From a virus (taxonomy: Duplodnaviria; Caudoviricetes): a stretch of 64,000 nt of DNA. The notes beneath the pieces were generated by a model. The model was not told the origin of the DNA. It ran no database searches and saw nothing but the letters and a program-made list of their open reading frames with translations. The DNA is taken from the IMG/VR virus record IMGVR_UViG_2933206877_000003, positions 10,092 to 74,091 of that record. One strand, 5' to 3'. Below, one piece after another: positions 3,254 through 62,096 of this stretch (positions are counted from its first letter, which is position 1; each line of letters starts with the position of its first letter). A program made the position numbers and the translations under genes.

Positions 3254-6200
3254 CCCCCTGCCCTCCGTCCAACGCGCGCGCGGTACGCCTGCCGGTTCTC
3301 GGAGGTGCGGATCATCGGCTGGACGGTTCCCTTGATGACGCCGATGAGTTCACCGGAGTCGAGCACCAGCTGACCGTTCACCTCGTGCGGCCGGCTGGCC
3401 TGAGCCTCCAGCGCCGCTGCCAGCCGATCCCACAACTGGTCTTGACCTTGGTTGCTGCCACCGGCAGTCGGTACGTAGCGGCGACGGATGGACACACCGG
3501 TAGCGGTGTTGGCGAGCCGCTGGGTTGCGGCACCGACGAGGTGGCCGTGCATGTCGATGCCGTGGGCCATTCCGAGGACGATGTTCTTGCCGACCTCGTC
3601 CCGGAACACCTGCGAGGGGCTCTTGATCTTCAGGGCCCTTTTGATGGCCTTGACCAAGTCCTTGGCCACGGAAGCCATCTGCTTGCCGAGCGCCTTCTCC
3701 TGCGACTTCAGGCCGGCCAGGAATCCCTTGCCCGCGTCTTTGCCGCTGTCGTACATCATGTCGGCCATGGACCGGCCGAACGATGTGGCGAGCTTGCCGC
3801 CGCTCTTCACGAGCTTGTTCAGCTTGGCGATGTCCTGTGTCTTGACGCCCTTGCCGCCGAGGATGGTCGCGAGCTGACTGCCCGGCCCGGCGTCGGCAAG
3901 CTGTTGCAGCAAGGCCTTCGACGCACCGCGCGCCTTCAGCCTCTTCGTCAGCGAAACGAAGCCCCGGGCGGTCTTCTGCTGGCCCCCCATCTGGGAGATG
4001 AGGTCGCCGACGTTCGACGCGGACGTCCCGCTGATGGACAGAAAGTCGTTGATGCGCCCGGCCTGGTCGCTGGCGTACTGATTGGCCGCTGCGATCTTCG
4101 CCTTGACCGAGGCCCGCTTCGTGGCGAGCGCTTCGAGCTTCGACCCCTTCTTCTCGACGGATGCCGCCGTCCGGTTGTAACCGGCGTTCAGCAACTTCGT
4201 CGCCAAGGACTTGATGGCCGAGGCGATCGACGACGACGTGCCCGTCGCCAGGGACTTCTGGAGCCCGGTGGCAATCGAGTTGGAGATCGAGGTCTTCGCG
4301 GACCGCTGGGCGTTTCTCAACGCGATCTCGGCGGCCTTCAGCTCCTTCTGGGCGGCCTGGAGGCGCTTCTCCGCCGCGGCCTCGCCCTTGTGCCGCCGCT
4401 TGGCGCGGGATACCGCGTCCTTCGCGTCCTCGACCTTCTCCTTGTCGCGGCGGACCCGGTCGGCGGCGTTCATGATCGTGCCGCTCGCGTACCCGGGCAG
4501 CTTGATGCCGTGGGTCTTGGCGAACGCCATGGAGTCCTCGTGGTTGAGGACATCCTCCCCGCCCTTGAAGTTCACCAGCTCGGCGCCCTTTTCGCCGACC
4601 CAGGCGAGGCCCTTGGCGGCGCCGCGCGTGCCCTTCGCGTACCAGTGCGGCGACCGAGCCAGCCATTGCGAGTAGGCGTTGAGCGGGTTGCCGTACCGCT
4701 CGGCGATGTACGACAGGCCCCACTTGATCTGGGTGGCCGGGTTGGTCTTCCAGTCGGCACCGGCCGACGCCATCTTGCTAGCGGGGAGCGACTGGGGGAT
4801 GCCGTAGGCGCCGCTGCTGCTGTTCAGCGCGCGCTCGTTCCAGCCGCTCTCCCCGTTCCACAGGTTCTTCAAGGCGGCCCACTGCGGGCCGCTCCAGCCG
4901 CGGAGCGCGGCGAGGGTGGCGCCGATCTTCTGGTTGGCGGACGAGCCGCCTCCTCCGCCACCGAGCCCGAGCATGCCGAGGACATCTCCGCCGAGACTGC
5001 CGAGGGCCTTGAGGGCCTTCCCGGGCAGCGACGAGACGGACACCAAGCCCTTCTTGACGATCGACGCGAGGGCCTTGGGCATGCTGCCGAACACCTTGTG
5101 AGCGATCGCGGCGCCGCTGGTGCGGGACATGCCCTTGATCAGGCCGGTGACCAGGTGGCCGCCGATGCCCATGAAGACGCGGCTCGGGCTCTTGATCCCG
5201 AAGAAGTGCTTGACGCTGTAGACGACGGGGTCGACGACGACGCTCTTCAGCCAGCTACCGATGCCCCGCATCCTCTGTGAGACACCGCTCTTCAAGCCTG
5301 CGATGAGGGCGGAGCCCTTCGAGATGAGCCAGGTTCCGGCACGCGTGAAGGCGTTCCGTGCCGGGGCGGTGACGTGGGAGGTCATCCAGCCACCGATCGA
5401 TTTTCCGATCGAGTTCGCCCCGGACTTGAATCCGGACACCATCGCGCTGCCCTTGCCGGTCAGCCAGGACCCGGCGCGGGCGAAGCGGCTGGTCACCGGT
5501 GTCACAAGGTGGCTGACGATCCAGCCGCCGATGCCCTTGGCCGTGTTCAGGACGCCGTTCTTGAATCCGGCGACCAGATTGCCGCCGATCCCGGTGAATA
5601 CCTTCGACGGGGATGCAATTCCGAAGCCGCTCTTGACCCAGCGGATGACAGGGTCGACGAGGTGGCTCTTCATCCACGAGCCGATGGATTTCAGTTTCGA
5701 CCAGGCGCCGCTGATCAGCGACTGTGCCAGGTTGAGGCCGGTCTGATAGAGGGTGAATCGGCCGAACGTCTTCACGATGGCACGGATAAACCGATTGCCC
5801 ATGCCGGGCACTTTGTCGACGATCGCAGATCCCAATCTGGAGATCATCTCGCGGCCCTTGCGGACCAGTGCTCGACCCAGGTCTTCGAGACGGACCGGCA
5901 ACAGGAGCAGCTGGTCACTGAACCACTGCGCAACCTTGGGGAAGCGTGACGCGAATGCGTCACCGAACTTCGAAACGATCCTGCTCACGAAGCGGTAGAT
6001 CGCTCCGAAGAACTTGGGGGCGAGTTCCCCGATCTTTTCGCCGAAGGGGAGGATCTTCCCCCACGGGATGCGGGTGAAGATCTCGCCGAGCTTCCCCCAG
6101 GGGATCCGCCCGAAGAGCTTCCCGACTACTCCGAAGAGCTTGCCGAACGGCACGATGGCGATGGTCGCCAGAATCACGTCGAGCCAGTGCTTCTCCCAGA

Positions 6201-9918: not shown

Positions 9919-10253
9919 GGGACCCTCACCACCGCGACGGTCACGGAGGCCGTGGCCGAGTAGTTGATGGTCGCGAGCCCCGTCGTCGGATCGGCGTACA
10001 GGCCGGGGATGAGCGGGATGATGCCCAGGCCGGTGGTCGCGCCGACGGAGAAGGTGCTGTCGGCGATGGCGAGGCGGCCGTCGACCTGGCCGGGCGTGGT
10101 CAGGGTCACGGTGACAGCGGACCCGCTGGCGTTCTTCACCAGGAGGAAAGTCCCGGCGCCACACGCTGCGGTGTCTCCGTTGGTGGCGGCCACGGGGGCC
10201 GAGCCGACGTCGAGCCCGACATTGGGCACGACCTGGGTTACGAGCGCGGTCAT
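9915..10253 (-). CDS. Small virion structural protein
   Basis: 112 aa beta-rich, AGGAGG RBS. Confidence 0.65.
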   Translation of the reverse strand: MTALVTQVVPNVGLDVGSAPVAATNGDTAACGAGTFLLVKNASGSAVTVTLTTPGQVDGRLAIADSTFSVGATTGLGIIPLIPGLYADPTTGLATINYSATASVTVAVVRVP

Positions 10254-37997: not shown

Positions 37998-38029
37998 GGC
38001 AACTCCATTACCGTGGAGAGGCGTTGGAG

Positions 38030-38102
38030 TGGTGCTGGCGGGACTCGAACCCGCGACCCAGGACTTATAAGATCCGCGCTCTGCCAACTGAGCTACAGCA
38101 CC
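38030..38102 (-). tRNA. tRNA with UAU anticodon (nominal Ile, reads AUA); CCA not encoded
   Basis: Cloverleaf GGTGCTG-TA-GCTC-AGTTGGCA-GAGC-G-CGGAT-CTTATAA-GTCCT-GGGTC-GCGGG-TTCGAGT-CCCGC-CAGCACC-A. Confidence 0.88.
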
Positions 38103-39436: not shown

Positions 39437-39511
39437 TGGTGGGCCCGGTCGGAGTTGAACCGACGACCGGCGGTTTTAAGGCGCCTGCTCTGACCGCTGA
39501 GCTACGGGTCC
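39437..39511 (-). tRNA. tRNA with UAA anticodon (bldA-type anticodon) on a short-variable-loop body; CCA encoded
   Basis: GGACCCG-TA-GCTC-AGCGGTCA-GAGC-A-GGCGC-CTTAAAA-CCGCC-GGTC-GTCGG-TTCAACT-CCGAC-CGGGCCC-A-CCA. Confidence 0.85.
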
Positions 39512-44124: not shown

Positions 44125-44495
44125 CAGCTTTCTCCGCTCGCACGCATCAGGCGCTCGTAGATGGAGGCGCCGCTGAGCCGGTCCTCGATGTGGCCGGACC
44201 GGCCGCGTCCGGGGTCGGTGAGGCCACTGATGGCGCGGGCCACGGCGAGAGCGGGGCACGGCAGGTTGAACAGGTTCCGCCGGCTGTCGCAGTAGCCGCA
44301 CTCGCTGTCGGGCAGGTGGATGACGGCTGCGTCCTCCAACCATCGGATCAACGGCTCACGAGCGCCCAGCAGGACCCGGATCATCTCCAGCAGTTCGCGA
44401 CTGTTGCAGTCGACGAGGAAGCCATCGCAGTTCCGATCGTCGCGGAGCCGGGCCGCGGCCGCGCGCAACTCCTCGGCTGGGTTGGTAGTGGTCAC
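44124..44495 (-). CDS. Hypothetical protein
   Basis: PAEELRAAAARLR...ALAVARAI. Confidence 0.6.
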   Translation of the reverse strand: MTTTNPAEELRAAAARLRDDRNCDGFLVDCNSRELLEMIRVLLGAREPLIRWLEDAAVIHLPDSECGYCDSRRNLFNLPCPALAVARAISGLTDPGRGRSGHIEDRLSGASIYERLMRASGES

Positions 44496-56760: not shown

Positions 56761-57272
56761 CAGTCCTCGCTGTCGTGGTCGCGGGCGGTGTCGAGGACCG
56801 CGGTGAGTCCGTCGGAGAGGGCCTGCATCTCGTGCCGCATCTCGGTCACGGTGAGGTCCGGGCCGCGCATCAGCCGCTGCGCGTACTCCCGCCAGTGCGC
56901 GAGGCCCGCGCGGAGCCGGGCGGTCTCGATGAAGGCGAGCATGCCGCCGGTCAGCCGCAGTGTGGAATCGGCGAGTTCGAGCTGTCCGCCGTCGTCGAAC
57001 GTGCCGTGTGCGGTCCGCTGGAGGTGCAGGAAGCGGAGCGCATCGCGGACGGCGTCCTCCTGCTCTCTGTTGGGCAGCTCCAGGTGCACGATGCGCACCT
57101 TCACCGACGGCTCCTTCTCCGTGCCCGGCGCGGGTTCCGTCCGCTCGATGTGCGCGAACTCGCCGACGAACAGCCGCCGCGCACCGGGCTGGTCGTACAC
57201 GGGCCGCACGTGCGACTCCAGCGCCTCCTGTGCGGACGCCGAAACCTTGGCGTCGAACTTCAACTGGGTCAC
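56760..57272 (-). CDS. Hypothetical protein
   Basis: AAGGAG RBS; coupled. Confidence 0.65.
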   Translation of the reverse strand: MTQLKFDAKVSASAQEALESHVRPVYDQPGARRLFVGEFAHIERTEPAPGTEKEPSVKVRIVHLELPNREQEDAVRDALRFLHLQRTAHGTFDDGGQLELADSTLRLTGGMLAFIETARLRAGLAHWREYAQRLMRGPDLTVTEMRHEMQALSDGLTAVLDTARDHDSED

Positions 57273-57754
57273 GACGTCGTCTCCTTGGGCTGGGTCAGGC
57301 GCCACACGCGGATGACGGCGCCGGGGTGCGAGAGGGTGTCGGCACCGGTGAGCACGTACCGCTTGGCAGCGACCGTGTCGGTCACGACGGAGTCGTCGAG
57401 GAGTACGCCCGCGTCTTTCAAGGCGTCTTGGGTCGAGCGGAGCAGCTTGTCCGTGTCCGGCTTGCCGGTCGGATGCTGCGGAGCGGACGGCTTGACCACG
57501 CCCGCGTTCCGGCCGGTGCCGAAGTGGCTCTTCGACCGGGGCAGCGTGAAGACGACCTCCAGCCGGACGGCCTCACGGAGCGGCTGCCACGCCTCGTCGT
57601 AGGCGAGTGCGTCCAGCGCGGCCGACTTCACGGCCTCGCGCCACGGCTTCACCTTGGCTGACGACTCGTACAGCGCACCGGCGGCATTGCGGTTCTTCGA
57701 GCCCTGCGGGCCCGGGGTGCCGTGCACGGTGATGGAGAAGGCGGGAGCGGTCAC
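57269..57754 (-). CDS. rusA: RusA-family Holliday junction resolvase
   Basis: GTPGPQGSK, KPWR, KPDTDKLLRSTQDAL, DDSVV. Confidence 0.9.
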   Translation of the reverse strand: MTAPAFSITVHGTPGPQGSKNRNAAGALYESSAKVKPWREAVKSAALDALAYDEAWQPLREAVRLEVVFTLPRSKSHFGTGRNAGVVKPSAPQHPTGKPDTDKLLRSTQDALKDAGVLLDDSVVTDTVAAKRYVLTGADTLSHPGAVIRVWRLTQPKETTS

Positions 57755-58110
57755 GGCTGCTCACCGCCGCTCGCGCGCTGGTCCAGCTCGTCGGCGGCCA
57801 TCTGGAAGATTCCGGCCAGCTGAGTGCCGTCCAGGTTGTGCAGCTCCGCCAAGACCCCGCCGGCTCCCCCGGCAGCCAGCAGCACGGTGGCGATGTCGGC
57901 CAGGGGAAGGTCGACGACCGCGGGGATCTCCCGGGCGAGGTGCTCGGCCGCGTGGCCCGCGAACTGGACGCCAGGGTCGTTGGCGTGGCGCCGCCGGTTC
58001 TCGCGGACGGCGTCAAGGATGCCCTGCCGCGTGTAGGTCTCGGCGGTGAAGGCACGCCTGCCTCTCCGTGCCAGTTCGCGGATGACGGCCTCCCGCTCCG
58101 CGCTGCTCAC
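57751..58110 (-). CDS. Hypothetical protein
   Basis: Coupled ORF. Confidence 0.6.
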   Translation of the reverse strand: MSSAEREAVIRELARRGRRAFTAETYTRQGILDAVRENRRRHANDPGVQFAGHAAEHLAREIPAVVDLPLADIATVLLAAGGAGGVLAELHNLDGTQLAGIFQMAADELDQRASGGEQP

Positions 58111-59021
58111 TGCTCTTCACCGCCCTCGGCGTCACGTGCGCCAGAGCCGGGCTGGGCAGCGGCCGGCCAGGATGCGGCGGCCGCCGGGTGCTCGCCATCG
58201 CCGGGCTGGTCGTCGCGGGAGATGACGGTGCCCCGGATGACGGGCGGCACAGTGTGCGCGTCGTCGAGGTCGTCGTCGTGCTGGATCAGCTCGGCCAGCT
58301 CGGTCGACGTGGGCACGACCTTGCGGAGCCGGAGCACCGCACTCTTGGCCCACATGGCGTCGAAGTCGGTGTGCCAGGCCGAGTCCCTTTTGCCGTTGCT
58401 CTCGGCCTTCTTGTACGCCTTGGAGAACTTGTTGCGGATGCCCTCGGCCTGTGACCGGTTCAGGATGATCACCTGGGAGCGGCGGCCGTCGATCCACGCG
58501 AAGGCGTAGGCCAGGATGACCTTCCCTCGCTCCTCGTCGGTGAGGTCCACGCGCGGCTTGTGGTAGAAGTCGCGCGGGCTCGGCTCGGTCGGGGTGTAGT
58601 CCCAGGCGTCGTTCTCCCGAACCCAGCCGAAGTGCACCGAGTCGACGCGCGGGTGTCGGTACATCAGCTCGATGTAGCCCTCGTACATCGGCTGGAAGGT
58701 GGCCACGCCGCTGTAGGGGACGATGGCGGCCTGGCGGCCGTCGGGCTCCAGCCCGAACCGTGCGCAGGCGAGCAGCGCGGTATGGATGGACGCCGGGGTG
58801 CAGTTCTTCAGGTCCTCCATGCGGGCCTGCGCGACGGCCATGAAGTGCGCTCGGTCCACGTGCCGGGGCAAGGCGTCCGTGAAGTAGGTCTCGCGGCGTA
58901 GCAACCACTGTCGGGCGCTGTCGTTCACGGCGAGGTCGGTAACCGGCTGGTGGTCCGGCTGAGGCTCGTCCGCACCGGCGGCGGCCTTCACGCGGTCCTT
59001 CAGGCTGTCGGGCATGGTCAT
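58107..59021 (-). CDS. recT: RecT-family ssDNA annealing protein
   Basis: CTPASI...GLEP...IVPY...YEGYIEL...W.TDFDAMWAKS. Confidence 0.92.
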   Translation of the reverse strand: MTMPDSLKDRVKAAAGADEPQPDHQPVTDLAVNDSARQWLLRRETYFTDALPRHVDRAHFMAVAQARMEDLKNCTPASIHTALLACARFGLEPDGRQAAIVPYSGVATFQPMYEGYIELMYRHPRVDSVHFGWVRENDAWDYTPTEPSPRDFYHKPRVDLTDEERGKVILAYAFAWIDGRRSQVIILNRSQAEGIRNKFSKAYKKAESNGKRDSAWHTDFDAMWAKSAVLRLRKVVPTSTELAELIQHDDDLDDAHTVPPVIRGTVISRDDQPGDGEHPAAAASWPAAAQPGSGARDAEGGEEQ

Positions 59022-60262
59022 CCTTCCGAGGGCACGCGGAGCACGCGGGCCCGGTACTTGCGGTAGGTCTCGGGGTGCTCCTGGGCGAGCCGCTCGGTGT
59101 CGACGGCTGGGACCAGGTGGGTGTACTGGGCGGCGAGGTCCGGCTCGGCGTCGCGTAAGCGAGCGGCAGCGAACTGGCCGTTGCGGCGCCAGGTGTAGGC
59201 CGGGCGGCCGCCGATGGTGGCGACCTCGGCCTCCCCGGCGTTGGCCCGCAGTTGGTTTTCGGCCTCGGTGAGCTGGTCCCCGAGGTAGGCGATCTCTTCC
59301 TTCAGTTCGCGACGGCGCTGCTTCAGGAGCATCGTCTCGACCGGATCGACCTCGACGGTGGCTTCCTCGCGGGTGTCCCACAGCCGGGCGAGCAGCTCGG
59401 CCGTGGCCTGCGAGCCGTCCGGCTTCGGCGGGACGCCGGCGAGTACGTGGTTGTGCCAGAACCGGTCGACGGCGTCGGCGAGCAGGGCGCTCAGTTCCTC
59501 GTCGCGCTCCAGGCGGAACCACGTCAGGTCGTCATCGATGAGACCGGCGACGTACGCGCACCGGTAGCCCGTGACGGTCAGGTACCAGTGGGCCTGGATC
59601 GCGGGCCGATCCGGTGCCTGCTCGCCGTGCCAGCCCTCGATGCGGGCGGAGCGCCAGGTACGGGACTTGCACTCCAGTACGCCCAGCTCGTCACGGGCCT
59701 GGTCGTCGGGCGCGACGGTGAGCCGGTCGGGGTTGGCGATCCAGTGCGGGTGGTCGACATGCTGGAGGGTGCCCGGCGAGTCGATGACCGTAAGACCGGA
59801 GTCCTCGGCGAAGAACTCGGCGACGAGGCCCTCCAGCCGGTGGCCGCGCCGGGCGGCTCTCTCCAGCCGCGCATTGTGGCGCTCTGAGGCCTGGCCGGTC
59901 TTCTCCAGCCAGACATGCAGCGGTCCGCGGTAGGCGTCCATGCCGAGGATGGCGGCCACGTCCGAGCCGCCGGCACCACCGGCCCGCGCTTCACGCCAGG
60001 CTTCCTCGGAGGCTCCAGCGGCGAGCAGTAGCCGCGCGGTCGGGGCGACCGGGTCGGAGACGCGGATGGTCGTCTCTGACCCGGTCGCGGTCCCGGACGG
60101 CGCAGGCAGGGTCTCGGGGGCCGGGGTCAGTCGTCGTGACGGCCCCTCTCCTGCCTTCGTTCCCGTTGCGGCCGCGAGCAGCTCCGCTGCGGGTGGCGTT
60201 GACGCCGTCCGGGAGGTGTGGGACTCGCCCGGAGCAGGCGGGGTCTCAGGTACCGAGTTCAC
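59018..60262 (-). CDS. YqaJ/lambda-exonuclease-family recombination nuclease (repeat-derived N-terminus; start uncertain)
   Basis: GGSDVAAILG, GHRLE, ANPD, LECK, QAHWY. Confidence 0.9.
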   Translation of the reverse strand: MNSVPETPPAPGESHTSRTASTPPAAELLAAATGTKAGEGPSRRLTPAPETLPAPSGTATGSETTIRVSDPVAPTARLLLAAGASEEAWREARAGGAGGSDVAAILGMDAYRGPLHVWLEKTGQASERHNARLERAARRGHRLEGLVAEFFAEDSGLTVIDSPGTLQHVDHPHWIANPDRLTVAPDDQARDELGVLECKSRTWRSARIEGWHGEQAPDRPAIQAHWYLTVTGYRCAYVAGLIDDDLTWFRLERDEELSALLADAVDRFWHNHVLAGVPPKPDGSQATAELLARLWDTREEATVEVDPVETMLLKQRRRELKEEIAYLGDQLTEAENQLRANAGEAEVATIGGRPAYTWRRNGQFAAARLRDAEPDLAAQYTHLVPAVDTERLAQEHPETYRKYRARVLRVPSEG

Positions 60263-60592
60263 TGTGCGGTTCCTCTCCTGCCTTGGATCCCGCTGCGGCC
60301 GTGCTCTGTCCGGCGGCGGGTGACGTTGACTCCGGGCGAGTGGTCTGGGGCCCGTACGGCGCAGGCGGGGTCTCTGGGGCCTCGAAATCGGAAGGCCCCT
60401 CAGCCGCCTTCGCTCCCGCTGCCGTATCTCCCAGACCGGCAGCAGGTGACGTTGACGCCGTACGGGTGGCGGGGGACCCGCCCGGCGCAGGCAGGGTCAC
60501 GGGCGCGGAACGGTGCGCCTCTCCTGCCTTGACCTCCACGGCGGCCGCCCTCCTCAAGGCGGCGGCGGCAGACGGCGTTGACGCCGGACGGG
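60099..60592. repeat. Four degenerate ~126-132 bp tandem repeats with internal hairpins
   Basis: GCAGGCRGGGTC at 60102/60234/60361/60487; GTTGAC at 60198/60325/60451/60577. Confidence 0.85.
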
Positions 60593-60602
60593 TGGTCTTC
60601 AC
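60246..60602 (-). CDS. Low-complexity repeat-derived ORF (may be non-coding)
   Basis: GTG overlaps upstream stop; made of repeat units. Confidence 0.35.
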   Translation of the reverse strand: MKTTRPASTPSAAAALRRAAAVEVKAGEAHRSAPVTLPAPGGSPATRTASTSPAAGLGDTAAGAKAAEGPSDFEAPETPPAPYGPQTTRPESTSPAAGQSTAAAGSKAGEEPHSELGT

Positions 60603-61069
60603 GGCAGCCTCACCGACCGGATGGTGAGGCGGGGGCTGGGCGCGGTGCGGACGTGCTCTGCGACCTCGCGAGTCTGCTCGGCCCAGGATGGGGAGAAGTC
60701 GCGTGGGGTCTGACCGTTGATGGCCTTGAGAACAGCACCATGCACGGTGTCGAGGAAGTCGGTGGGGCGAGGCATGGAGCAGATCTCGGGCAACCCTCGC
60801 GCCGTGCACGTGGGGTCCCATCCGGTGAGGACGATCGGTCCGGCGTACGGCTGGAGACGGGCGCCGAGTGTGATCAGGACGCAGGAGCCGACGACGTTGC
60901 GTGGGTACTGGTCCGGGAAGCGGAGGCCGTCGTCGCTGACCCAGCCGGTGACGGCCAGGCGGGGCAGGTGAACGCGGGCCTTGCCCTCGGTGCCGACGAG
61001 CGCGTCCCAGTCGGGCTGGTCGTCGTGGTCGGTGAGTTCGCCGTCCGACGTGATGAGCGCGTACCGCAT
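60599..61069 (-). CDS. Hypothetical protein
   Basis: GWVSDDGL....RN...QPYAGPIVLTG. Confidence 0.7.
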   Translation of the reverse strand: MRYALITSDGELTDHDDQPDWDALVGTEGKARVHLPRLAVTGWVSDDGLRFPDQYPRNVVGSCVLITLGARLQPYAGPIVLTGWDPTCTARGLPEICSMPRPTDFLDTVHGAVLKAINGQTPRDFSPSWAEQTREVAEHVRTAPSPRLTIRSVRLP

Positions 61070-61440
61070 CAGCGGCCCCCAATCCGGGCCTTGTTGCTGG
61101 GCCGGTTCGCCGCGCGCGGCGCACTGCGGCGGATCTTGTCCGCTCGCACCCAGACGCCCCAGGTAAGACCGGAGTCGTTGTCCCAGTGGACGAAGACCAT
61201 CGGCTGGTCGTGTGCCTTACCGGCCAGGCAGACGGCGCTCGGCTCGCCGGTGAACAGCCCGGGGACGTGCTGGGGCTGATCGACGGCGACGGTGCCCTGG
61301 CGGCCGCAGGCGTGTACGACGCGGGAGCCGACGGGGTGCTGCTCGGCGAGCTCGCGCAGCCGGGCTCGTACGGCGTTGCCCTCCGGTCCCTTTCCGTCGG
61401 GCATCACGGTGCCCCGCCAGTCGAGCGTCAGGGCGCTCAT
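61069..61440 (-). CDS. Hypothetical protein
   Basis: GGAGG RBS. Confidence 0.6.
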   Translation of the reverse strand: MSALTLDWRGTVMPDGKGPEGNAVRARLRELAEQHPVGSRVVHACGRQGTVAVDQPQHVPGLFTGEPSAVCLAGKAHDQPMVFVHWDNDSGLTWGVWVRADKIRRSAPRAANRPSNKARIGGR

Positions 61441-62096
61441 GACGCCTCCAGTTCCAGGGTGGTGGGGGTACCGACGTAGCGGGCGCGGACGCCGTGGGTG
61501 CCGTCGCGGGTGAATGCCTCGGACTCCCAGCGGCCGACCGGGCGGAAGGCCTTGAAGGAGCCCGTCCGGAGGCGGTAGGCGCTCTGCCGGGCTGTCGGGC
61601 CGCTGTCGTAGAAGGCGACTACGCCCCACTCGCCGGGCGTCTCGCGCAGTGCGGCCGCGCGCTCCCGGTAGGTGTTGCGGGCCACGACCCGTGACATGCG
61701 ACGTGGCTGTGCCGGGAGGGTGAGAGCGCCGGTCGGGAACCAGCCGTTCAGGAGGCAGATGGCGATTGCCGTCGCGGTCGAACGGACGCCGAGTCGTCGC
61801 ATGGCCCCTTGCCGGTGCTTCCTCACGGATTTGGGGTCGATGCCGAGCTGCGGGCCGATCCGCTCACAGGTCTCGCCGTTGGTAGTCCTGATGAGGACCT
61901 CCAGCTGCCGACGGGTGAGAGGGCACTCCACGTCGGGGTCCCACTCGGCCAGCACCTGCGGCGACTTGAGCCGGTCGATTTCATCCAGCAGCTGCCGGAC
62001 AACGACCGCGGACGGGTGGCTGGGGTTGCGCTCCACGCTGGTCCGAACGCGGGCGAGGGCGAGTGGACTGAGCGGTTTAGCGGTCACGGCGGTCAC
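61437..62096 (-). CDS. LuxR-type HTH regulator
   Basis: LTRRQLEVL...GET..RIG.QLGI..KSV..H...RRLGV. Confidence 0.85.
   Translation of the reverse strand: MTAVTAKPLSPLALARVRTSVERNPSHPSAVVVRQLLDEIDRLKSPQVLAEWDPDVECPLTRRQLEVLIRTTNGETCERIGPQLGIDPKSVRKHRQGAMRRLGVRSTATAIAICLLNGWFPTGALTLPAQPRRMSRVVARNTYRERAAALRETPGEWGVVAFYDSGPTARQSAYRLRTGSFKAFRPVGRWESEAFTRDGTHGVRARYVGTPTTLELEAS

Follow-up and report, generated by a model that had tools for sequence, protein, structure and literature searches.

A Covarying, Tandemly Repeated Nucleic-Acid Module of Actinobacterial Phages and Prophages at the Start of Recombination Nuclease Reading Frames

The four tandem repeats around the start of a YqaJ-type exonuclease gene in the virus record IMGVR_UViG_2933206877_000003 were shown in this study to be copies of an autonomously folding, conserved module of about 110–125 nucleotides (nt) of actinobacterial phages and prophages, apparently one that is undescribed. 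The record is a 74-kb provirus with 70% G+C, and the part of it that was analysed, called the window below, runs from position 10,092 to 74,091 (64,000 nt); all coordinates are those of the window. The structure is supported by compensatory base changes in a wide set of relatives, some of which carry the units in frame within nuclease genes. As for the function, we lean, with considerable reserve, towards a cis-acting element of the messenger RNA (mRNA) that gates passage across a cistron boundary. The rival explanations, in descending order, are free RNAs made from the transcript, a site acting in single-stranded DNA (ssDNA), a selfish palindromic element and a protein repeat.

Four Tandem Units with a Common Predicted Fold

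The units are 118–124 nt each and occupy 60091-60593 on the minus strand, which is the gene strand. A reading of the letters without database searches, referred to here as the sequence-only reading, had placed four tandem repeats at this site, and direct-repeat analysis, Tandem Repeats Finder and a covariance model all recovered them. The direct-repeat families have spacings of 127/126/126 and 132/127/126 nt, and the period given by Tandem Repeats Finder is 127. Scored against covariance model R2, described below, unit 1 (60476..60593) reaches 81.7 bits, unit 2 (60350..60467) 106.5 bits, unit 3 (60223..60341) 105.5 bits and unit 4 (60091..60214) 97.9 bits, all on the minus strand. Unit 3, with 119 nt, has an extra base in its P3b hairpin that breaks the reading frame, and unit 4 is in frame with YqaJ.

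In the model, each unit is a three-way junction in which the closing stem P1 leads through the junction (G)UCAACGYCAC to a variable hairpin, P2, and then through the junction GA-N-C-N-A to a hairpin, P3. P1 comprises 12–13 base pairs and has a different sequence in each of the four units; two inverted-repeat pairs of P1 arms are complementary at 12/12 positions. This closing stem, present in every unit, goes beyond the hairpins that had been noticed from the letters alone. The conserved blocks and the four differing inner stems of that reading were all found again, and the outer-stem pair that it had described as A-T, G-T or G-C depending on the unit corresponds to pair 123/179 of our alignment.

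Folded singly, units 1–4 gave the three-way junction in all four cases, with minus-strand z-scores of -4.0, -2.9, -5.3 and -3.6, respectively, compared with the weaker folds of -0.2 to -2.5 on the plus strand. The array folded as a whole (581 nt) into four separate modules and a terminal hairpin, with a z-score of -5.9 and no equally stable fold among 100 shuffles. The GC-rich terminal hairpin (60045..60088, minus strand) stands directly after unit 4 inside the YqaJ frame and has 18-nt arms, 94% complementary, around an 8-nt loop. Six relatives (L010, L012, L019, L125, L159 and L166) have a hairpin of other sequence at the equivalent spot, for example GGGCCGGAGGC...GCCTCCGGCCC, and the hairpin after the last unit may be part of the module.

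Relatives of the Units and Covariation

Two viral contigs with related exonucleases carry units at the matching site, one unit in L009 and three in L010. A search pattern built from three conserved blocks matched 9 stretches in viral sequences, 78 in genomes and 62 in metagenomes. In line with a prior estimate, most of the genome and metagenome matches were due to chance: about 50 and about 40 of them, respectively, lacked a closing stem or fell under the model score and were dropped. L076 (31 bits, inside another open reading frame) and four 23-bit rows of set A6 were also counted as false. Two covariance models were built, of which R2 was used for unit calls. It gave 55 solid units of at least 55 bits in 32 loci and about 20 further units in 16 metagenome loci, and whole-genome searches added units that do not fit the search pattern. 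Altogether, the pattern scans and the covariance model yielded about 80 units in about 50 loci of actinobacterial phage, prophage and soil metagenome origin. The hosts are Streptomyces, Nocardiopsis, Kribbella, a propionibacterium, Pseudonocardiales, Acidimicrobiales, other metagenome-assembled genomes (MAGs) of Actinomycetota and one Acidobacteriota MAG.

No Rfam family matches the units, the Infernal comparison having been proposed with the sequence-only reading. Against Rfam 15, window positions 59500-61200 gave only chance-level microRNA and small-RNA matches of 15–22 bits at E<=10; at E<=1, no match fell on the element in ten loci that carry noncoding units, and twelve further loci gave only tRNAs at the gathering score. 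With blastn, nothing in 50,697 phage records matched the array. No description of the element was found in the literature searched, including PMC5737381, PMC2864571, PMC7157519 and PMC10690425, the supplementary motif catalogues lying outside the search. The last of these presents a catalogue of about 8,500 candidate structured RNAs from intergenic regions of IMG/VR, the data source common to both studies, and its text mentions candidates upstream of RusA and capsid genes. This catalogue may hold the noncoding form of the unit; a pipeline of the kind outlined there would miss in-frame arrays, since it is intergenic-only.

Selection on the fold is indicated by covariation. In a plain MAFFT alignment of 38 units, RNAalifold found compensatory changes in 21 of 30 pairs. 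With 56 rows aligned by the model, 94.0% of the cells pair compared with 75.5% in column shuffles, double changes occur in 24 of 28 pairs, and none of 500 shuffles reached the observed values; these figures are to be read with an alignment fitted to the model, seeds pre-selected by the P1 stem, and related rows that inflate shuffle tests. Sliding the pair partners as a control gave 32–49% pairing. The metagenome rows, which were unused in model building, show 91.0% pairing against 69.8% when shuffled (0/500 shuffles). Among units found without the pattern, compensated changes appear even in the 'invariant' P3a stem (AUGGCC../..GGCCAG, AAGGGCGG/CCGCCCUG). These data support, in a wide alignment, the selection for nucleic-acid structure that had been supposed from four copies.

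The window units are 0.75–0.83 identical to same-position units of other loci and 0.64–0.71 identical to each other. Since same-position units of different prophages are closer than neighbours within an array, the array is old, with each copy kept foldable separately. This bears on the explanation that the unit is a selfish palindromic element in the manner of those of Rickettsia, which inserts at gene junctions, survives where the frame is unbroken and has no function for the phage. The occurrence of units both in frame in open reading frames and in intergenic DNA, in unrelated neighbourhoods, would suit such an element, as would its dispensability: it was present in only 6 of 151 sampled Streptomyces genomes, and Streptomyces phage TurkishDelight, whose exonuclease is the closest cultured relative (39.5% identity), has no array before that gene and no unit anywhere in its genome. 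However, the copies are not dispersed in large numbers. There is a single locus in the provirus and in each of four viral records, and there are one or two loci in each of five host genomes. Besides the age of the copies and the compensatory changes that keep each foldable, there is no transposase or conserved terminal sequence, the P1 arms differing in every copy. The junction and kink-turn-like positions hardly vary between families of Actinomycetota, a sign of purifying selection for some function, and we regard a purely selfish element as quite improbable.

Arrays within Nuclease Reading Frames

In Streptomyces-type prophages, one to four units stand in frame at the very start of a YqaJ or RusA open reading frame (ORF) or amount to a separate short ORF. 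The first unit is preceded, at a distance of 6–12 nt, by an ATG or GTG that forms NTGA in 20 of 21 loci, the 21st being cut by the contig end; in the window, this NTGA start overlaps the stop of the upstream gene. Of 23 AAG-to-AAG spacings between units, 22 are multiples of three, the 127 nt of the window being the sole exception, and three more spacings in L125 and L159 measure 126, 123 and 126 nt. Stop codons are absent from the array frame in 41 of 42 units, and this frame enters YqaJ in 11 loci and RusA in two, ending otherwise at the start of the next gene. Judged from their frames, the arrays of Streptomyces-type prophages are evidently translated.

The sequence-only reading had placed the array upstream of YqaJ-RecT, but it is not an untranslated leader: its counterparts in relatives form the 5' end of a YqaJ or RusA ORF and are in frame with it. 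The 127-nt spacing, which had been read as a sign of selection on nucleic-acid structure rather than on protein, departs singly from a frame that is otherwise kept. The frame break itself is real in the assembly, as a contig of a public DNA run is identical to the window array at a depth of about 136 and has no indel; this contig is not independent, since the run is probably the source sample. The 1-nt excess in unit 3 splits the frame of the window array between YqaJ and the repeat ORF-A (60246..60602, minus strand; 118 amino acids), which was delimited by translation and frame analysis and whose GTG at 60600-60602 forms GTGA with the upstream stop. Because of the 1-nt frameshift, ORF-A reads through units 1–3 and stops at a TGA in unit 3. 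When the codons of the window were read, no canonical in-frame start was seen between unit 4 and the YqaJ domain, and the only in-frame start left for YqaJ after the frameshift is GTG 60262 (60260-60262), which comes 9 nt after the GGAGAGG of unit 3. Programmed +1 frameshifting at the unit 3 stop was set aside, as no slippery or RF2-like site was visible on reading the sequence.

The sequence-only reading had also supposed that one stem sequesters the ribosome-binding site of the exonuclease. The AAGGCAGGAGAGG block concerned is a conserved structural element present in every unit, where it supplies P3a and one strand of the kink-turn-like loop, and is not a dedicated ribosome-binding site. 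By accident, the copy in unit 3, at 60272-60284, stands 9 nt upstream of GTG 60262, and to this extent the supposition holds.

It might be proposed that the repeats matter as protein, giving the nuclease an N-terminal repeat domain that is disordered and rich in Pro/Ala/Thr, base pairing being secondary. The kept, stop-free frame, the fusion to two different nucleases (YqaJ and RusA) and the recurring peptide blocks STSP, KAGE and PETPPAP are in line with this, but the peptides are conserved nucleotide blocks read in one frame, and noncoding units have the same blocks with stops and in other frames. Of the 13 noncoding single units in set A5, 10 have stops in the corresponding frame, and the blocks are read in different frames in single units outside the Streptomyces group, which lie between a stop codon and a separate ribosome-binding site. 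The noncoding nature that had been suspected for the array thus holds for these related single units. Furthermore, codon-position entropy in the units is near-equal at the three positions (0.74/0.81/0.91), unlike that of the adjacent YqaJ body (0.49/0.45/0.83), and stem compensation alters residues on both arms, from TRPA...APGG in window unit 1 to TRTA...APYG in unit 2. The exonuclease of TurkishDelight has no such extension. A protein repeat is, in our judgement, very improbable. From the near-flat variability across codon positions and the noncoding single units elsewhere, it follows that the sequence is constrained by the fold and not by the peptide; the frame appears to be kept because the downstream domain or start codon must be reached rather than because the repeat peptide has a function. 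Among the observations that had been named in advance as speaking against selection on structure, preservation of the frame in homologs was found, while neither an absence of covariation nor conservation at the protein level was seen.

Kink-Turn-Like Loop and Gene Context

The internal loop of P3, with a C=G closing pair, a 3-nt bulge and tandem G.A/A.G pairs, has the sequence signature of a kink-turn. Placing the 3-nt bulge on the 3' strand was the best register in 59 of 71 units, and the loop positions are G at 1b in 70/71, A at 2b in 71/71, A at 1n in 67/71, G at 2n in 63/71, C at -1b in 68/71 and G at -1n in 70/71, b denoting the bulged strand and n the other one. The next pair outward of the tandem G.A pairs covaries or is A.G, and A.G is common at this position of kink-turns. 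In the loop, the search pattern fixed only GAC and AAGGCNG; how long the bulge is, which pair closes it and whether GA stands opposite were left free. We infer from the conserved junctions and the kink-turn a compact tertiary fold that would be recognised by some factor, which may be a protein, an RNase or the module itself. No L7Ae-type kink-turn-binding protein (PF01248) was found in the provirus.

Units occur directly after a stop codon, and every unit is sense to at least one adjoining gene. Many loci lie in recombination modules: besides YqaJ/RecT, there are the orders Rad52, unit, exonuclease phrog_35747 (L013) and recombinase, unit, exonuclease of the phrog_35747 family (L092), as well as loci with RusA (L021 and L085) and AAA_24 (L039). 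Elsewhere, a unit directly follows the major capsid gene (L030, L070, L140 and L152) or a Mu-type protease (L034), or precedes HNH and terminase (L015) or WhiB (L027). By reading, about 14 of 27 noncoding single units are followed directly by a strong GC hairpin without a U tail, and arrays too are followed by a hairpin, which is translated in frame. In L111, L149, L070 and L132, a strong hairpin also lies less than 10 nt before the unit; such units stand between two hairpins that leave no space for a promoter. A simple scan of 59500-61500 found no sigma-70 promoters or U-tailed terminators at the window array, and no likeness to tRNA or transfer-messenger RNA was seen at the array or adjoining single units.

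The P3b loop of the noncoding units is pyrimidine-rich, and in 16 of 27 of them it shares at least 5 nt with the anti-Shine-Dalgarno tail of 16S rRNA, compared with 4 of 27 for P2 as a control.

Possible Function of the Module

We propose that the module serves the sense-strand mRNA as a cis-acting valve where one cistron gives way to the next. The folded units and the following GC hairpin would keep ribosomes from entering independently and exonucleases from degrading the message across the boundary, so that the downstream nuclease would be made only by ribosomes that arrive from the upstream cistron and unwind the array, in a form of translational coupling. The number of units would set how much passes and, with it, the dose of the downstream nuclease, and the upstream message may be stabilised as well. 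In the window, YqaJ would restart at GTG 60262 with the GGAGAGG of unit 3 as its Shine-Dalgarno sequence. Action as sense-strand RNA is favoured by how the units are oriented, by their loop motif and kink-turn-like loop, by the better folding of the minus strand and by their placement between stop codons and hairpins.

Several points weigh against this proposal. Ribosomes melt folds, so that a stable one within an ORF sits awkwardly with the idea of an RNA element, and in the mixed gene contexts (exonuclease, RusA, AAA_24, HNH, WhiB, after capsid) one regulatory logic is not evident. For the valve mechanism, the arguments come solely from where the units lie and how they are built. Some of the invariant sequence (GTCAACG, AAGGCNG, GACNCNGCCTGC) follows from the search pattern itself. 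Finally, G.U pairs are not favoured over A.C in the stems, with 34 against 36 in set A5 and, with A5 and A6 pooled, 24 against 18 in coding and 29 against 25 in noncoding units, while a typical RNA family has a clear excess of G.U over A.C; this result is neutral or leans to structure at the DNA level.

Since G.U is no commoner than A.C, the structure could instead form in ssDNA, as an orientation-specific priming or strand-initiation signal or another recombination or replication site that is tolerated inside an ORF. On this explanation, which we hold to be unlikely, folding would take place when the region is made single-stranded, for instance by the phage's own exonuclease. Embedding in frame would need no special pleading, there is one locus per phage genome, and many loci belong to the recombination modules (YqaJ/RecT, Rad52 with an exonuclease, RusA, AAA_24); the lambda origin inside gene O is a precedent for a DNA site within an ORF. 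Yet the asymmetric loop of GA/AG pairs and a 3-nt bulge is a motif typical of RNA, folding is better on the minus (sense) strand (z-scores of -2.9 to -5.3, against -0.2 to -2.5 on the plus strand), and the anti-Shine-Dalgarno-like loops and the placement between a stop codon and a terminator-like hairpin are features of a transcript. Some loci also follow capsid genes, far from replication functions. That units are always sense to their neighbours likewise speaks against an ssDNA site, if weakly, phage genes being mostly co-directional.

Alternatively, the units may be processed from the transcript and act as RNAs in their own right, as self-cleaving ribozymes or as unit-length small RNAs or decoys, the array being both mRNA and precursor. 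The compact fold with its conserved junction nucleotides and kink-turn-like loop is compatible with such RNAs, as are the tandem copies and the varied gene contexts within phage operons, which known self-cleaving ribozymes likewise show. The hairpins on both sides of some single units and the anti-Shine-Dalgarno-like P3b loop, with its excess over the P2 control, point in the same direction. In noncoding units, such a loop might imitate the 16S rRNA tail, either to bind ribosome-binding sites or to divert a host ribonuclease. However, the loop is largely missing from the in-frame array units (5 of 44), and a message whose frame is so well kept would be lost if the transcript were cut after the start codon and before the nuclease domain. 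No known ribozyme or small-RNA family of Rfam matches, and complementarity of at least 5 nt between P3b loops, as kissing loops would have, was found in 12.5% of pairs within arrays and 11.8% between arrays, that is, without enrichment. Free RNAs seem to us an unlikely explanation. More doubtful still is its particular form in which the array is a coding precursor, a single transcript giving both the N-terminus of the nuclease and up to four kink-turn RNA copies that act as a new ribozyme class or as trans-acting or decoy RNA.

Comparison with Known Systems

The cis-acting mRNA element that we tentatively prefer has close counterparts among sense-strand structured RNAs at the cistron boundaries of phage operons, such as the RNase III sites of T7, the put antiterminator RNAs of HK022 and the Mu-gpT downstream element. 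Phage intercistronic elements of this kind share its placement directly after the major head gene and just before terminators; the present fold is different, larger and translatable, and has no similarity to them in sequence or model. Architecturally, the unit resembles kink-turn RNAs such as the SAM-I, T-box and lysine riboswitch aptamers, in which a P1-closed multi-helix junction with conserved junction nucleotides is combined with a loop of C=G, 3-nt bulge and G.A-A.G pairs. A terminator-like hairpin often follows riboswitch aptamers, and tandem copies are known for some. Unlike riboswitches, the present units match no Rfam family and stand in up to four copies in a translated ORF, and the downstream genes share no metabolic theme: no link to one pathway of the riboswitch type was found among neighbours that comprise exonucleases, RusA, AAA_24, HNH, WhiB and capsid genes.

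The palindromic elements of Rickettsia are likewise about 100–150 nt long with paired ends, occur in frame in ORFs as well as in noncoding DNA, and encode a tolerated low-complexity peptide. In contrast to these dispersed elements, the present units form one tandem locus per genome, and their strong covariation and conserved core point to function. Iteron-type origins within an ORF, such as the lambda origin, have repeats of one conserved double-stranded binding sequence; the present units keep three short blocks and consist mostly of covarying arms that differ from copy to copy, and no initiator gene was identified beside the array. The ToxI arrays of type III toxin-antitoxin systems offer the same order of tandem RNA repeats, a hairpin and a nuclease gene, but the ToxI repeat measures about 36 nt compared with 110–125 nt here, and the present repeats are translated. 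A ToxIN-like system was rejected, as the downstream ORF is YqaJ (PF09588), and elsewhere RusA, HNH or a phrog_35747 exonuclease, and not a ToxN/AbiQ-type endoribonuclease. A packaging RNA of the phi29 type was also rejected, given the loop complementarity within and between arrays and the lack of an Rfam match.

Searches for structured RNAs cover almost only intergenic DNA. A module with riboswitch-grade covariation, repeated in tandem inside an ORF, is a clean natural case of one sequence carrying two codes. If the module acts as RNA, it would represent a new kink-turn family for Actinomycetota and their phages and would offer a way into how phages adjust the amount of recombination nucleases that are potentially toxic; action as ssDNA would instead mark it as a complex DNA fold of a rare kind, linked to recombination in phages. 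In both cases, Streptomyces lysogens lend themselves to a test, given the covariance model and a set of roughly 50 loci.

Neighbouring Genes and Further Observations

According to the ORF list, all genes surrounding the repeats lie on the minus strand, in the order GerE/LuxR regulator, two small ORFs, repeats, YqaJ-type exonuclease, RecT, a 119-amino-acid ORF and RusA. The exonuclease ORF of that list (59018..60262, minus strand) contains the Pfam YqaJ domain (PF09588) at residues 89–233 counted from GTG 60262. By Pfam search, it is followed by the gene of a RecT-family annealing protein (58107..59000, minus strand), the 119-amino-acid ORF and RusA (57269-57754, minus strand). The G+C content of third codon positions (GC3) is 0.85–0.95 in the genes flanking the array and about 0.7–0.8 in all three phases over 60000-60600.

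Neither small ORF on the upstream side of the array (60599-61069 and 61069-61440, minus strand) belongs to a Pfam family. The first (60599..61069) encodes 156 amino acids with a strong GC3 signal, and its TGA stop at 60599-60601 overlaps the GTG of the repeat ORF. A peptide-pattern search of viral contigs found no relative of its product; the ORF itself is kept beside the array in L009, L010 and L017.

Among the relatives, the Streptomyces kronopolitis locus L075 has, upstream of its unit (4763-6031 as oriented), a run of five stop-to-stop frames on the opposite strand, each exactly 255 nt long, which indicates a 255-bp tandem repeat next to the unit. That genome has a second, similar unit (L087) on a different contig. 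L090, L100 and L139, which come from MAGs of Actinomycetota or from metagenomes, have in common a second conserved stretch of about 50 nt, placed 15–25 nt downstream of the unit (GGGCCGCGAGCGGGCCGG..GGCGGAGCGAGCGGC), for which no Rfam or tRNA match was found. In the provirus, ordinary tRNAs were found for Ile-TAT (38029-38102) and Leu-TAA (39437-39511), and ARAGORN called an unusually long tRNA-Ala(CGC) of 94 nt at window positions 44363-44456.

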